64,000 nucleotides of DNA from a virus: IMG/VR virus record IMGVR_UViG_3300007162_000005. One strand, written 5' to 3'. The notes under the pieces are model-generated. The model saw only the letters and a program-made list of their open reading frames with translations, had not been told where the DNA came from and did not search any database. The position numbers and the translations under genes were made by a program. Shown here piece by piece: positions 1,628 to 7,392 of this stretch. Position 1 is the first letter of the stretch. The number at the start of each line of letters is the position of its first letter.

Positions 1628-1636
1628 TAATTTAGC
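1628..1636 (-). promoter_or_regulatory. GCTAAATTA motif, putative phage late promoter
   Basis: Identical 9-mer recurs upstream of genes at 4585, 37555, 48396 and 62284. Confidence 0.55.
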
Positions 1637-4577
1637 CATTGATTCGTTCTGGAAGTTTAGAAAATACATATAATAAACCTTCTTCTCCAAGGTTACTAAT
1701 CGGTTTAGGATATTCTATCTTGTATGTCCCTATGTTAGAATCAGTTCCACCATAGTGTTGTTTAACATCATCTTTAGTCTTGCATAGCCACAAGGCATAC
1801 TTAGCTTCTGGGTATTCACCATGTATAACATCCATGAGAGTTTCAATATAGATATCAAAGTCTTCTATAGCCTCACCACTATCAATGAGCTCAATAAACT
1901 CTTTAAGTAGCTTACCTTGTTCTTCTGTGTGCTTAAAGGTTTTTAATACTGTGTCAGGTATATCTATGTTTCCTAGTTCTGTTGTTTCATGAACAACAAC
2001 TTTAAGTAGACTTCTTTGACCATCACCAAAGTAATCATCATTCCTATAACCCACAGATTCATTCTTGCTTTCTAATAGCCCACGTGTTATATCATCATAG
2101 GTATCTTCTGGAATCTTGGTTGTAAGGTTATATGTCTCATTACTACTCGATGTGTTGACCATCAACTCATATATACCCCATTCAATGAGGTAGTACATCC
2201 AGCTGATGATAGCTTTCTTCTGGGCTGGGTTAGGAACCTTCCATAAGTCAATATAGGCAAATGGTTCAAACCTATTCCCACCATTAGCCTTGATAAGGTC
2301 AAAGGCATCATGTAAGACATAGTAATCATCTCCTTCATAGTCTTGACCATCAAATATCTTAGCGTGGGTTACAAATCTCCCTACGTTAACAAACTTACCT
2401 TCCCTAGAAATAAAGATAGGCCCACGTTCTGGATTGTCAGAGAAAGTTAAGGATTTATATACTTCTCTGTGGTCTATGTCTTCTTTAATGATTGACTCAC
2501 CTAACTTACCTGTGCTATAATATTGTTTAATCAAATCAAGTATTTCTTTAGCACTTTTGTTTTCTAACTGTGAACTATCTATCTTACCTAGTTTTGGTGT
2601 ATATATTTTTAACTCTTGTTTAATAACATTATTAATAATCTGTAATATCTTTTCATACTGTTGAGATGTAGGTGTATTATTATTAAAGAAAATGAATGCA
2701 TCACCTTCATATGGACTCCAAATTACAGCAATAGAGCCAGTAAGGGCTTCAAAGGTAATGCTTAAGTCTTCACTTGAAGTAGAAGGAATAAGCCCAGTAT
2801 GCTTTAAAAACATATCAACCTGTGCATGACTCCAACCATAGTGGGATGATAGGTAACTTCTTTCTGATGCTTCACTTTCACTAAACATATCTATAAAGCT
2901 TCCATCTGGTAACAGGTAAGAAGGTGTTCCTTCTGGTATATCTTCACTAAAGCCAAACTCTTCTTTAACAGCATCAATTATGTTTTTGTCGGTTAAAGTT
3001 ATTGCTTCTAGGTCAACATCTTCACTTAGCTTACCTGTGTTGTAATAATGTTTGATACTATTAATAATATGAGCTGCATCTTTTGACAGTTCATCTCTTC
3101 CAGAATCTTTAAGGGTAAATACTACCCCTTTCTTTTTGTTATCTACTATAACCCGTGCTTCCTTATAGTCTAGTTTGCTTAAATATGATTGAAGTTTCTT
3201 ATACTGTTCTTCAGTAGGTTCTACTTTACCAAGATTGATTCCTGTAAAGTTATACCCATCATTAATAGCAATAGAGTTAGTAACCTCTTCAAAGAATGTG
3301 CTCCCTGTAGTGACAGGTGGAACAGTCATACCAGCATCTGCTAAAAACTTATCAACAAAGGAATGGTCTATGGTTTCTCTTTTTGTGCCGTCGTTTGTAT
3401 AAACGATGTTTGTTAAAAAGTTACCATCAGGTAATATATAGAAGTCTTCTCCAGCTTGAATATCAAACGTATGAGGGGTAATCTTAAAGTATTCATCAGA
3501 ACTTCTTAGGATGTTTAAAACATTTTCTTTAGTAGCCGGTATTGTTTCGAGTTCAACATCATTGGCTTCCATCATTCTTGAGCCTTCCATCTTTCTTGTG
3601 ATATAGTATTCTTTTATTACATTGATTATTGTCTTTGCTTCGTCAACAATCCTGTCTGTTTGAGAGTTAATATGGAAATCTTTAAACATCTTACCGTCTT
3701 CTATAACAACAAAGTCTTTATCCGAATCACTCTTTACTATATATGTTTCTAATGTTTTATACTGAGCCGGGGTTAATGGTGCACTGTTTAACATAATTAC
3801 AATGTGATTTGTACCATCATCAATAGCTACTGAGCCTGTGACCTTCTCAAAGAATAGACTTCTATCTTCTGTTGGTTTTTCTGTCATTCCTACACCTGCT
3901 AGGAACTTATCAACAAAGGAATGGTCACGATATATCTTCATAGTATCTTCATCATACAAGTTAGTTACAACCATTCTGCCATCTGGGAGAATGTAAAAGT
4001 CATCCCCAGTGTTAATCTCACTAAAAGAAGTTGTAATCAAGAACTCTTCAGAACTGTCTTCGAGAAGCTTGATAATGTTTTCCTTAGTTGGGGATATGGC
4101 TTCAATCCCTTGTTCCTCTTGCTCTTCATTGAGGTCTTTAACCACCATAAGGTCAGCAAAGGGGATGACACCATTATAGAAGTATGTTATACTGTTAAAG
4201 TACTGTTCTAATGAAGTAAGGTCACCATCCTCAATGATATCAGTATTCCAGGTATTGTTCCAGTCAATCTCAAGTAAAGAATGGTCTAGCTTGGCTGTAG
4301 GTATCTTAAAGACAATAACCTCTTCTGTTTCAAGTCTATCATCATCACTGCCTTCTACAAAGGCTTCAGCACTACCAGCATCAGTATCAAGGAACACACC
4401 TTGGTCATATTGAAGATGCCATAAAGACTTATAACCAGACTTAAGGCTACCTAGCCCATTCTTCTTAATGCTGTCCAGTGTATTACTGAAAGTAGCATGA
4501 AAAAGAAACTCAGGAAGGTATTGTCCAAAGTCACCAGTTTTAATAACATCTTTGATTTGTTGCTTAATAGTGTCCAT
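1632..4577 (-). CDS. 981-aa multidomain protein: N-terminal ADP-ribosyltransferase-like domain, 3-4 tandem ~180-aa repeats, C-terminal domain
   Basis: FHATFSNTLDSIKKNGL...GVFL resembles the KptA/ART-type HxT motif; repeated YILPDG...DHSFVDKFL...QY..L units. Confidence 0.7.
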   Translation of the reverse strand: MDTIKQQIKDVIKTGDFGQYLPEFLFHATFSNTLDSIKKNGLGSLKSGYKSLWHLQYDQGVFLDTDAGSAEAFVEGSDDDRLETEEVIVFKIPTAKLDHSLLEIDWNNTWNTDIIEDGDLTSLEQYFNSITYFYNGVIPFADLMVVKDLNEEQEEQGIEAISPTKENIIKLLEDSSEEFLITTSFSEINTGDDFYILPDGRMVVTNLYDEDTMKIYRDHSFVDKFLAGVGMTEKPTEDRSLFFEKVTGSVAIDDGTNHIVIMLNSAPLTPAQYKTLETYIVKSDSDKDFVVIEDGKMFKDFHINSQTDRIVDEAKTIINVIKEYYITRKMEGSRMMEANDVELETIPATKENVLNILRSSDEYFKITPHTFDIQAGEDFYILPDGNFLTNIVYTNDGTKRETIDHSFVDKFLADAGMTVPPVTTGSTFFEEVTNSIAINDGYNFTGINLGKVEPTEEQYKKLQSYLSKLDYKEARVIVDNKKKGVVFTLKDSGRDELSKDAAHIINSIKHYYNTGKLSEDVDLEAITLTDKNIIDAVKEEFGFSEDIPEGTPSYLLPDGSFIDMFSESEASERSYLSSHYGWSHAQVDMFLKHTGLIPSTSSEDLSITFEALTGSIAVIWSPYEGDAFIFFNNNTPTSQQYEKILQIINNVIKQELKIYTPKLGKIDSSQLENKSAKEILDLIKQYYSTGKLGESIIKEDIDHREVYKSLTFSDNPERGPIFISREGKFVNVGRFVTHAKIFDGQDYEGDDYYVLHDAFDLIKANGGNRFEPFAYIDLWKVPNPAQKKAIISWMYYLIEWGIYELMVNTSSSNETYNLTTKIPEDTYDDITRGLLESKNESVGYRNDDYFGDGQRSLLKVVVHETTELGNIDIPDTVLKTFKHTEEQGKLLKEFIELIDSGEAIEDFDIYIETLMDVIHGEYPEAKYALWLCKTKDDVKQHYGGTDSNIGTYKIEYPKPISNLGEEGLLYVFSKLPERING

Positions 4578-4598: not shown

Positions 4599-4621
4599 AA
4601 AAAAGAGTCCAATCTGACTCT
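4599..4621 (-). terminator. Rho-independent terminator
   Basis: AGAGTC-agattg-GACTCT followed by TTTTT on the minus strand. Confidence 0.75.
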
Positions 4622-4712
4622 CTGTTAAATCTAGTCCCAGTATTTTGTAATCGCTTACATGGTATAAGGTGACCTAACACAATGGTTAAGTCTTATAACT
4701 ACTAATTATCTA

Positions 4713-4949
4713 CTACCAAGCTCTTTGAATGTAGAACGTAATGTCATTGTTGCAAATATAAGTCTTGTAGTGTTTGTCATCATAGACCTTAACAACCTTC
4801 AGACCATACTTTGCTAATAAGCCATACATATACTTGTTCGCACTATCTCTTGAGGCAAAGGTTCTTTCTTTGACACCTTTAAGACCTGTACATGAAAATG
4901 TATAGTAGTGACCGTTTAACATGGTTCCTAATAGGACATCTGTATCCAT
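4713..4949 (-). CDS. Hypothetical protein (78 aa, MDTDVLL...)
   Basis: SD (AAAGGAG) precedes ATG 4949. The longer ORF-track start at 5051 overlaps a terminator-like hairpin. Confidence 0.7.
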   Translation of the reverse strand: MDTDVLLGTMLNGHYYTFSCTGLKGVKERTFASRDSANKYMYGLLAKYGLKVVKVYDDKHYKTYICNNDITFYIQRAW

Positions 4950-5006
4950 ATCTCTTTCTCCTTTGTTCACCCACCTCTGTGAAACTGTAACCCCTTTCAA
5001 AATTAA

Positions 5007-5372
5007 AAGCCTACCTGACGTGGGACACACATCTTTGGTAGGCTTGGTCATATACTACTTGTTTTGGGATTACTTATGTGTTCCCACGATATACCACCTT
5101 TAGATTAAGGAGGTACCCCACAGGGAACATAGGAGGTGAAATCATGACCCTGTGAGGATTTATGTCTAAGCCATCCTATACGGTTCTTATATTTGAACTA
5201 CCCACTGCATAATGAGACTGGACTTACACCAATACATGTACAGGAGTCTTAGACGGATTCGGGCTAACCATATATCCCGCCATTGAGGTTTGCCTCTCAA
5301 CATTCAATTAACTGGAGGTTTGTTAACTGAACAGTAGAGGTTGGTTTAAGGGCTTATCCCATTGCCACACTT
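5007..5372 (-). ncRNA. Candidate large structured non-coding RNA (~365 nt), family not recognised
   Basis: Non-coding and GC-richer than its flanks. Many helices: GTCTAAG/CTTAGAC, TTGAG/CTCAA, CACAGGG/CCCTGTG, CAGTTAAC/GTTAATTG, terminal AAGCCTACC/GGTAGGCTT plus U-tract. Confidence 0.6.
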
Positions 5373-5375
5373 TAA

Positions 5376-5558
5376 CTATAAGACTGTGCTAGGAGGAGTA
5401 GGAGGTGTATCTGCTGTTGGGGCAGTAACCTTCTTGACTCTAGGCTTACGTGCAATCTTCACTTGGGCAAGTCTAGTTAACTTATTGCTAAGTTGAACCA
5501 ACATGATTGTGTTACTAATTGCAACCAGTAAGATTAAGACACCGATTGTTGTTCCCAT
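5376..5558 (-). CDS. Small membrane protein (60 aa)
   Basis: N-terminal hydrophobic helix, basic/Pro-rich tail. Confidence 0.7.
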   Translation of the reverse strand: MGTTIGVLILLVAISNTIMLVQLSNKLTRLAQVKIARKPRVKKVTAPTADTPPTPPSTVL

Positions 5559-5679
5559 TGTTCAATATCCTTTCATAATATTATACAACTTATTTTGGAT
5601 TTTAAACTCCAGAAAGACATATACCTATAGTATTTGCCTCTCGAGAAGTTTAGCTATTAATTTAAGACCATTTACCAAG

Positions 5680-5762
5680 AATCTACTAAATTACTACTAA
5701 CTACTATATATCTACTAAATATCTACTAGTAGACTTTAGGTAGTCTTTGAGTAGACTTTACT
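5680..5762. repeat. Low-complexity CTACTA / AGTAGACTTTA repeat tract with a central TCTACTAGTAGA palindrome
   Basis: About 5 CTACTA copies, then 2 AGTAGACTTTA copies, intergenic. Confidence 0.6.
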
Positions 5763-6513
5763 AGTGCATGAAGCTGCTATAGTTATCCCAAGGAATGTCA
5801 CTGTCATATCCTACACTGTCATAAGCCTTATTGGCTTTAAAGTCATAAAAGAAGCTAGATACTTTATTGTATTTTTTATCATACTCTACTAAGTAATGTA
5901 ACTCATAACTCTTACCATTATTCTTATTTACCATTAGAGATATGTTATTAGTTCCATATTCATTCCTATATTCGTGGGGTATATCAGTTATAGAACATTG
6001 ATTATACTTCTTTCCCGGATTCAATCCCTCAGCAGGGTTAGTTTTAAAGGAGGGTATATTTAGAGTTTCTATAAATTTTGATATAAGTCTTACTTCTTTT
6101 TTTACTCTATTTAAGTCTTTTAATGTAACCTCATCACCATCTTCTATTCCTATTTCGATGTTTTCTTGAATTACACCCCTTACATCTTCATCGTGTATAT
6201 CAACCTTATTTTCTCTTATAACAATGTCATCTTCTTTTCCTGTTTTTCTTGTGGAGTAAAAGAAAGTAGAGGCTACACGTGGCCACCTACTACCATCTTT
6301 GGTAGGCAAGTCAAACCATATAATCCACAAAAAAAGTCCTAAAACCTTTTTATCATTAATATTCTTACCTTTTTCAACATAATAGTCAAAGTCATCTTGG
6401 TATATATGACCACTTTCATCTAATTCTTCAAACACATCCTTATTAATTTTTATTAAAAAGTCATTTTCTTCGATAAATTTCTCTATTTTTTTGTATATTT
6501 GTTCTATTTTCAT
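5761..6513 (-). CDS. Hypothetical protein, IxKFIxxN paralog family
   Basis: 250-aa ORF; N-terminus KIEKFIEEND. Confidence 0.75.
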   Translation of the reverse strand: MKIEQIYKKIEKFIEENDFLIKINKDVFEELDESGHIYQDDFDYYVEKGKNINDKKVLGLFLWIIWFDLPTKDGSRWPRVASTFFYSTRKTGKEDDIVIRENKVDIHDEDVRGVIQENIEIGIEDGDEVTLKDLNRVKKEVRLISKFIETLNIPSFKTNPAEGLNPGKKYNQCSITDIPHEYRNEYGTNNISLMVNKNNGKSYELHYLVEYDKKYNKVSSFFYDFKANKAYDSVGYDSDIPWDNYSSFMH

Positions 6514-6518
6514 TATTA

Positions 6519-6842
6519 TTACCCCAGTAAGGTTTTAAGGTAGTTGTTAATCTGTTCTACTTCTCTACGGATGTAAGACTTATCTGCATCCTGTAAGATA
6601 CTATTACTCTCTAATGCTTTATCGTTAAAGGGTGTTAGTTGTTTAATGTTAAGGGATTCATTTAAGACTAGTTGTGCTTCTGCTACATCTAGTGCCATCT
6701 CATTCATTACAATGACTCCTAGGTTGATAGTCTTCTCTCCCCCCTTATAATGGTTGGTAGCTACTAAGACTGATAAGGCATTGTCATCAATGAACTTCTC
6801 AATCTTCTCTATGAGTTGTTGTCTAGTTAGCTGGGGTTTCAT
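6519..6842 (-). CDS. Hypothetical protein, IxKFIxxN paralog family
   Basis: 107-aa ORF; KIEKFIDDNAL. Confidence 0.75.
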   Translation of the reverse strand: MKPQLTRQQLIEKIEKFIDDNALSVLVATNHYKGGEKTINLGVIVMNEMALDVAEAQLVLNESLNIKQLTPFNDKALESNSILQDADKSYIRREVEQINNYLKTLLG

Positions 6843-7392
6843 ATTGGTAACCTTCTTTCTTATAGGCTAGTTCCTTTTCAAAGCTATAGTGGTATTGGTC
6901 TAGGGTCTTAAACTCTTTACTGTCTACCCTACCTGTTTCAGTTGCTAATAGCTCTCCTGGGTTGTCCTTATCCTTCCTGACCTTAACAAAGACGAATCTC
7001 TTTCCTGGGTGTAGGGTGAAGATGATAGGTTTACCATTAACGTTGGTAGGTTTACCTAGTAAGGTTTCTAACAGTTCAGCTATCCGTGAAACATATTCAT
7101 TCGGTTCTGTTCCTGTTGGCACTGAGACTGGGGTATAGTATAGAACATTGTCTTCCTTAGTGTTACCCTTGAACTCTGAGTATAAGGTTATACTGATATT
7201 GTTTTGAGAGGGGTAGGTATACATACTGATTGTCCATAGGTTAAATCCTATTAGTTTCTTCTTGTCTAAAGGTTGACCCTTTTCCACTGAGCAGTTAACT
7301 GAGGGGAACTTGGGTACTCTTTCTAGGGTAATAGGTAAGGCATTATCTATAATAAACTTTTGAATGCTTTGATGTACTTCCCTTACTGTCAT
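6823..7392 (-). CDS. Hypothetical protein, IxKFIxxN paralog family
   Basis: 189-aa ORF; SIQKFIIDNAL. Confidence 0.75.
   Translation of the reverse strand: MTVREVHQSIQKFIIDNALPITLERVPKFPSVNCSVEKGQPLDKKKLIGFNLWTISMYTYPSQNNISITLYSEFKGNTKEDNVLYYTPVSVPTGTEPNEYVSRIAELLETLLGKPTNVNGKPIIFTLHPGKRFVFVKVRKDKDNPGELLATETGRVDSKEFKTLDQYHYSFEKELAYKKEGYQYETPAN

Follow-up and report, generated by a model that had tools for sequence, protein, structure and literature searches.

A structured and very probably new RNA with anti-Shine-Dalgarno-like words in an uncultured large phage

Genes and features of the locus

The window, by which we mean the whole 64-kb stretch of DNA that was analysed, is part of a large AT-rich uncultured phage (G+C 34%), and identical or near-identical contigs are present in JGI metagenomes. 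Nearly all genes in the window are carried on the minus strand, and the genes found there include those for a topoisomerase, a split family A polymerase, ribonucleotide reductase and a DnaB-like helicase, in addition to a tmRNA and four tRNAs. The stop codon of a 60-aa ORF (5376-5558, minus strand) and the start of a 78-aa gene (4949) are separated by ~425 nt without a credible ORF. This gap holds the RNA described here, a minus-strand transcript of ~350-370 nt. The features of the locus, in the order in which they would be transcribed, are as follows.

5580..5588, minus strand: promoter-like -10 element ahead of the small ORF, conserved in the window and in the related contigs L007 and L030
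5376..5558, minus strand: small ORF of 60-66 aa, with an N-terminal transmembrane helix, a Pro/Thr tail and two Pro-Pro motifs
5000..5375, minus strand: the structured RNA as a whole, comprising a body of ~330 nt, a terminator hairpin and a U-tract
4999..5045, minus strand: intrinsic-terminator-like hairpin in two tiers (9-bp base and 6-bp top), then a U-tract
4713..4949, minus strand: the 78-aa gene, belonging to an unannotated phage family of ~75 aa

A sequence-only reading of this DNA had reported no credible ORF in 5007-5372, and our analysis agrees. The sole ORF that overlaps the region, of 112 aa (4713-5051, minus strand), is an artefact that extends the 78-aa gene at its 5' end; the start of the gene itself is preceded by a strong ribosome-binding site. 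In a closely related contig (L005) the RNA is 100% identical, and the short spacer after the terminator carries three substitutions and a 1-nt deletion. These changes destroy the 112-aa extension, and the gene caller therefore gives 78 aa in that contig. A peptide from an internal 38-aa ORF (5187-5303) was likewise rejected, since the indels found in relatives are not multiples of three and break the frame. The G+C content of the RNA is 0.42, compared to 0.34 for the window and 0.34-0.36 for the flanks. No paralogous copy of the RNA was found in the window.

The small ORF precedes the RNA in every variant, with its stop codon 5-8 nt before the first helix, and a ribosome-binding site is conserved ahead of it. 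Its product is 73% identical over 40 aa to the copy in L007, and the frame is kept in L007, L030 and L031 despite indels. The protein also contains a basic stretch, and its Pro/Thr tail is variable; the two Pro-Pro motifs, which are encoded by CCUCCU, are always kept near the stop codon. The final codons of the ORF include two CCUCC words, additional to those of the RNA. The product resembles small membrane toxins, holins or arrest peptides. Judged from its sequence, the element at 5580-5588 is the probable start of a ~0.6-kb transcript that would contain both the ORF and the RNA. No promoter-like site was seen between the small ORF and the RNA, and the simplest unit is thus promoter, small ORF, RNA and terminator (~0.6 kb), with some read-through into the 78-aa gene.

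Several other features of the neighbourhood were recorded. The intergenic region ahead of the small-ORF promoter (window 5680-5760) contains short direct and inverted repeats with units of ~8-9 nt. This cluster, which could be an operator or an iteron-like array, is kept in L007 and L030, and a related word is found at 4697-4716 after the 78-aa gene. Further upstream, adjacent minus-strand genes of 250, 107 and 189 aa (5761-6513, 6519-6842 and 6823-7392) share a related N-terminal segment and so appear to be a small paralogous family (BLASTP E 6e-7, 1e-3); the 250-aa paralogue is absent from the L007, L027 and L031 variants. On the other side of the 78-aa gene lies a gene for a 981-aa protein (window 1632-4577). 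Its homologue in L030 (2872-5237) has a precomputed Pfam match to ART-PolyVal, which agrees with the window protein being a predicted ADP-ribosyltransferase-type polyvalent protein. At the same position L027 and L028 have a 195-aa gene followed by a gene for a ~600-aa protein.

Fold, strand specificity and pattern of change

The minus strand of 5007-5372 folds with a minimum free energy (MFE) of -117.7 kcal/mol (z -5.1), a value that none of 100 shuffled sequences reached, whereas the plus strand of the same region has a z of only -1.55. The same asymmetry was seen in all five variants described below, with z of -5.1 to -5.7 for the sense strand and -1.6 to -2.2 for the antisense strand. G-U pairs account for ~15 of the 107 pairs of the window sequence, and each of these would be an A-C mismatch on the opposite strand. 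The many G-U pairs, together with the greater stability of the sense strand in every variant, indicate that the structure is an RNA structure of the minus strand. At least eight helices had been proposed from the sequence; the minus-strand fold contains 12-15.

Homologues of the RNA were reached through the downstream 78-aa protein, by way of two further 90% clusters with 13 members. They provided four further versions of the RNA at the same position, in L031, in L027 (with the same version in L007 and L028), in L008 (L032 being nearly the same) and in L030 (same as L025). These versions show 84-90% identity to the window, which is similar to the identity of the flanks. Because the flanks are conserved to about the same degree, conservation by itself is weak evidence, and it is how the sequences differ that carries the argument. 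The principal helices are listed below, where six rows refers to the full alignment.

5301..5333, minus strand: H2, a long hairpin of 11 pairs, all kept in the six rows, with a 9-10-nt loop (5321-5313)
5164..5254, minus strand: H5, a multibranch domain with an outer 7-bp helix (5254-5248 with 5170-5164), a covarying inner stem and three hairpins
5116..5157, minus strand: H6, a hairpin of 14 pairs, of which 3 have compensatory changes, 100% paired, with an 11-nt loop (5142-5132)
5092..5115, minus strand: H7, a hairpin of varying length, 87-89% paired in the alignments
5050..5370, minus strand: candidate closing helices, predicted by RNAalifold, between the 5' end (5370-5355) and 5070-5050

In an alignment of three sequences, 97.5% of the cells pair and 11 double changes are present, as compared to 5.0 +/- 1.5 in shuffled controls (0/500 with as many) and 0-1 when the partners were slid. 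With six rows, representing the five variants, 99.0% of the cells were paired and double changes were seen in 11 pairs and 16 cells; the shuffled controls gave 4.3 pairs and 5.5 cells (0/500), and slid partners gave 0-2. Lack of covariation among homologues had been named as an outcome that would count against the RNA, and what the relatives show is an excess over both kinds of control. Compensatory changes above controls are therefore found together with strand-specific stability, the two findings that mark conserved structured RNAs in general.

The changes are spread over several helices. One position of H2 runs through G-U, G-C and A-U among the variants, and the inner stem of H5 occurs in four different versions, each of them self-complementary. 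The outer helix of H5 is lengthened to 11 bp in some variants, and one of its hairpins is variable in length. H7 carries a 22-nt insertion in L007 and L027 that folds as an extension of its own, capped by a GNRA-type GUGA loop. No variation was seen in the outer 7-bp helix, two small hairpins, the small hairpin at the 3' side or the terminator, and covariation is therefore uninformative in these parts. The pairing of 5300-5260 and of both ends of the RNA is ambiguous. Long-range helices that would close the RNA by joining its ends are weakly supported in the alignment-based model, since the changes within them are one-sided, apart from a single double change that is equally explained by a local helix.

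These results also bear on the individual elements proposed by the sequence-only reading. The long-range helix thought to enclose a multibranch domain is real and invariant (5254-5248 with 5170-5164, minus strand), and the terminator-like 3' stem is present as a hairpin at 5045-5007 (minus strand) with a U-tract at 5008-4999 after it; a simple terminator scan had omitted this hairpin on account of its interrupted stem. The hairpin at 5283-5300, described as GNRA-type, has instead a C-N-A-A loop (CAAA, CCAA or CUAA in the variants), and this segment could pair in any of three alternative ways. The switch or pseudoknot made of mutually exclusive helices is not supported by the relatives. The second pairing of 5131-5123, with 5085-5075, exists in the window, but substitutions break it in two lineages (L008/L030 and L031), in which the hairpin at 5157-5116 is kept by way of three compensatory positions. 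This switch was therefore set aside.

All five known variants are close (84-99% identical), and the RNA was found in one narrow clade only. With blastn and megablast, neither the RNA nor the first 20 kb of the window had a counterpart among GenBank phages. When IMG/VR was searched with four DNA patterns, exact or gapped, that represent separate portions of the RNA, all matches were chance ones in coding DNA; a three-block pattern had no match in GTDB genomes. A covariance model (R1) built on H5 and H6 found only its source site when run against the window, every locus retrieved and five phage records with the 78-aa family that are complete or nearly so. Taken together, we regard it as very probable that the structured RNA is real and under selection, and that it belongs to a new family.

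Known RNA families and the neighbourhood of the 78-aa gene

We scanned all 4227 models of Rfam 15, including GOLLD, drum, OLE, HEARO and raiA. In this release the accession RF01998 denotes group-II-D1D4-1, and not GOLLD. In the window and four relatives nothing was found at gathering thresholds, and only noise at E<=10, which upholds the earlier description of the RNA as belonging to no recognised family. The sub-threshold matches were to Trp_leader, on the terminator (18.7 bits, E 0.81), and to snoRNA and miRNA models. The RNA could still be a diverged or miniaturised form of a known large family, such as ROOL, drum, a YrlA/tRNA-like RNA, RNase P RNA or a group I intron, but we consider this very improbable. 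A ROOL RNA does occur at the equivalent position in another phage contig, L012 (see below). However, no match to ROOL, GOLLD, drum, RNase P, tmRNA or intron models was obtained even at E<=10, and specifically none to ROOL (RF03087), at gathering or at E<=10, in the window and four relatives. The same ROOL model scores 263 bits on L012, showing that the search works.

The other candidates fared no better. One variant gave a weak YrlA/tRNA-like match (24.9 bits against a gathering threshold of 69, E 0.065), which was seen neither in the window nor in any other variant, and which disappeared when the stretch was searched alone. A T-loop-like word of the RNA is itself paired as a 4-bp stem, and ARAGORN found no tRNA or tmRNA in the RNA stretch. 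RNase P RNA is characterised by the P4 helix with its universally conserved bulged U, and by the conserved blocks CR-I to CR-V. A short word in the present RNA resembles a strand of P4, but the position of the conserved U is occupied by C in the L008/L030 lineage, and there was no model match to RNase P RNA. Similarly, no group I intron model matched even at E<=10, and flanking exons are absent.

The comparison with GOLLD and ROOL that the sequence-only reading had offered, as to the kind of RNA, is apt: ROOL occupies the equivalent spot beside the same gene family in another phage. ROOL and GOLLD are phage or prophage RNAs found in accessory regions, close to tRNA islands (PMC5737381, PMC12286853). 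Like them, the present RNA is ornate, phage-borne and built with a multibranch domain. Unlike them, it is ~350 nt long, as against ~580 and >800 nt, has no evident promoter of its own, and shows no similarity to either in sequence or by covariance model. One mark of the ROOL/GOLLD kind is the formation of RNA-only homo-oligomeric cages. The phage context is also shared; the closest tRNA lies at a distance of 24 kb, although the family of the adjoining 78-aa gene belongs to tRNA islands elsewhere. Several stand-alone motifs are known to carry a terminator at their 3' end (PMC5737381). The motifs drum, FuFi-1, skipping-rope and DUF3800-I (Weinberg et al. 2017) finish with a Rho-independent terminator, are not evident riboswitches and tend to accompany certain protein genes (PMC5737381). 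The present RNA is likewise structured and terminator-ended; however, it is three times larger than these motifs, which are of ~100 nt and widespread, it was found in one phage clade and it matches none of their models. It is a new, unrelated class within the known kind of phage-borne structured RNAs.

We then considered the gene that the RNA adjoins. A HMMER profile search gathered 60 clusters of this family, with proteins of ~75 aa, in uncultured large phages. The 78-aa protein has no family in Pfam or PHROGs and nothing in Atlas, and its AlphaFold model (pLDDT 85) has no fold match in the PDB at E<=0.001. No member was found in GTDB genomes by a protein-family scan, or in GenBank phages by tblastn with three members.

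Outside the clade of the window, the family gene is adjoined by tRNAs, ROOL or drum in 10 of 13 distinct loci. Same-strand tRNA genes lie within ~1.6 kb in eight of these loci, often as whole arrays and once with a tmRNA. At one locus (L012) a ROOL RNA ends 70 nt before the gene and is the sole ROOL in a 91-kb record, and at another (L019) a drum RNA lies 350 nt downstream of the gene; the remaining three loci have no tRNA, ROOL or drum beside it. The link of ROOL to the family thus comes from a single locus. The ROOL of L012 (1855-2434, 263 bits), on an IMG/VR phage contig, is full-length and has a consensus-like promoter just upstream; synteny with its locus was not seen beyond the 75-aa gene. 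The upstream gaps at the other loci of the family are short and contain no copy of the present RNA. The gene therefore resides in phage RNA islands, and in the clade of the window its RNA neighbour is the new RNA. Such residence favours an RNA gene over a leader that evolved for one small gene.

Possible modes of action

The position of the terminator fits a cis-regulatory leader. The terminator ends 50 nt ahead of the 78-aa gene, no promoter-like site was seen between the two, and the hairpin, including its loop, is the longest invariant run of the alignment. The terminator loop can also pair with an upstream segment.

5076..5088, minus strand: segment B, a candidate antiterminator that pairs with segment C (5032-5019) in the terminator loop

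The two segments form a 13-bp duplex with one bulge (-17.9 kcal/mol) that covers the loop and the top of the terminator hairpin. In folding of the nascent RNA this duplex is within the MFE structure until the 3' strand of the terminator is made, after which the terminator fold is better by 10 kcal/mol. A duplex as good was obtained with 27 of 1000 dinucleotide shuffles of the upstream RNA (2.7%). The modelled helix is suggestive of attenuation but does not prove it. In such a mechanism the fold would sense a ligand, a protein or the translation of the small ORF, would set whether B pairs with the terminator loop, and would thereby set read-through into the genes for the 78-aa and the 981-aa polyvalent protein. 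The duplex and the terminator would be incompatible, save as a sterically strained pseudoknot, and the stop codon of the small ORF, with the Pro-Pro motifs just before it, is so near the first helices that a ribosome footprint would span the distance. T-box and trp-type attenuators likewise have a long structured leader, a terminator before a gene and a helix competing with that terminator.

Other observations do not fit a cis-acting transcription attenuator of this riboswitch-like kind. A leader of ~330 nt would be very large, and homologues of the 78-aa gene at 13 other loci have short upstream gaps with no such leader. B and C never vary, leaving the competing helix without covariation support, and the helix would disrupt the top of the terminator and not its base. 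Unlike T-box and trp-type leaders, the RNA has no specifier, T-box bulge or usual leader peptide, and no T-box, riboswitch or aptamer model matches it. A second intrinsic terminator is present between the 78-aa and 981-aa genes (window 4602-4623, minus strand). No promoter-like site was seen after it either, so that read-through of in-line terminators seems to be usual in this phage and may simply be general here. On balance we hold attenuation, the main rival to the reading favoured below, to be possible, if rather doubtful.

The RNA may instead be the structured 3' UTR of the mRNA for the small membrane protein, controlling the stability or translation of that mRNA and having no function of its own, much as hok-type small toxin mRNAs are controlled by folding back. 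In all variants it directly adjoins the transmembrane ORF, within a single promoter-to-terminator unit, and the anti-Shine-Dalgarno-like words described below could in principle mask a ribosome-binding site. Only ~5 nt, however, are complementary to the ribosome-binding site of the small ORF itself, no antisense partner is evident, and an ornate multibranch fold with variable peripheral hairpins exceeds what stability would need. We consider this explanation unlikely.

The words in question are copies of ACCUCC. The transcribed strand of the 64-kb window contains eight of them, of which three are within the RNA and are invariant across the five variants; another is found among the final codons of the small ORF, 30 nt upstream of the RNA.

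5319-5314, minus strand: first ACCUCC word, in the loop of H2
5139-5131, minus strand: 9-nt word containing ACCUCC, in the loop of H6
5114-5109, minus strand: third ACCUCC word, in the 5' strand of H7, paired in the model

The 9-nt word at 5139-5131 has no second copy on either strand of the 64-kb window and is identical to the 3' end of 16S rRNA (the anti-Shine-Dalgarno sequence). It is solely from the words ACCUCC and UCACCUCCU that we infer a putative pairing function. Multi-hairpin RNAs with C-rich loops that pair with Shine-Dalgarno regions are exemplified by RNAIII of S. aureus and by RsaE/RoxS, some of which encode a small peptide. The present RNA is similar, as a comparison with general knowledge, in having C-rich anti-Shine-Dalgarno-like words in several loops, and the transcript resembles the RNAIII type in carrying a small ORF with a membrane-active-looking peptide and in ending at a terminator. 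It has no homology to these RNAs, and its host and setting (a lytic-type phage) are different.

We tentatively favour, as a reading that is quite possible but short of probable, a stand-alone phage RNA acting through the anti-Shine-Dalgarno-like loops. The RNA would be made as the 3' part of the ~0.6-kb promoter-to-terminator transcript, from which it may be trimmed, and would then act as a discrete molecule, as is thought for ROOL, GOLLD and the terminator-ended phage RNAs of the drum type. It would most likely work through two hairpin loops and one stem strand, in which the anti-Shine-Dalgarno end of 16S rRNA is copied. The loops could base-pair with Shine-Dalgarno-like GGAGG tracts of mRNAs, thereby occluding ribosome binding, or alternatively could capture a factor that would otherwise recognise the 3' end of 16S rRNA. 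The third ACCUCC word, which is paired in the model, counts against such action through loops. Counting against a discrete RNA, no promoter of its own is visible and no more than 10 nt separate it from the stop codon upstream, so that it could simply be a UTR; moreover, the terminator closely precedes a gene for which no separate promoter is visible, and this fits a cis-regulatory reading. A stand-alone RNA and attenuation are nevertheless compatible with each other.

A further proposal is that the RNA is an abundant molecular mimic of the 16S rRNA 3' end, soaking up Shine-Dalgarno sites of host mRNAs or serving as a decoy for a factor; in the decoy version the target could be a factor, a ribosomal protein or a defence nuclease that recognises the 16S tail. 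We think this improbable. The genes of the phage itself carry ordinary Shine-Dalgarno sites, and a general sponge would therefore neither be selective for the host nor spare them, which weakens the idea of a sponge specific to host sites. More specific targets, or a protein partner of the loops, are equally possible. If the RNA is such a mimic, it may share its role with the ROOL and drum RNAs that lie beside the same tRNA-island protein family.

ROOL and GOLLD, which are abundant in phages and have spectacular structures, are without a known function. The mid-sized class described here provides a handle, as its copies of the anti-Shine-Dalgarno sequence suggest ribosome-binding sites, or a reader of the 16S tail, as the target. 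The neighbour family of ~75 aa that is shared by tRNA arrays, ROOL, drum and the present RNA is a second, testable handle; it may mark phage RNA islands, or be a partner common to them, and so open a route to the function of the RNAs that they contain.
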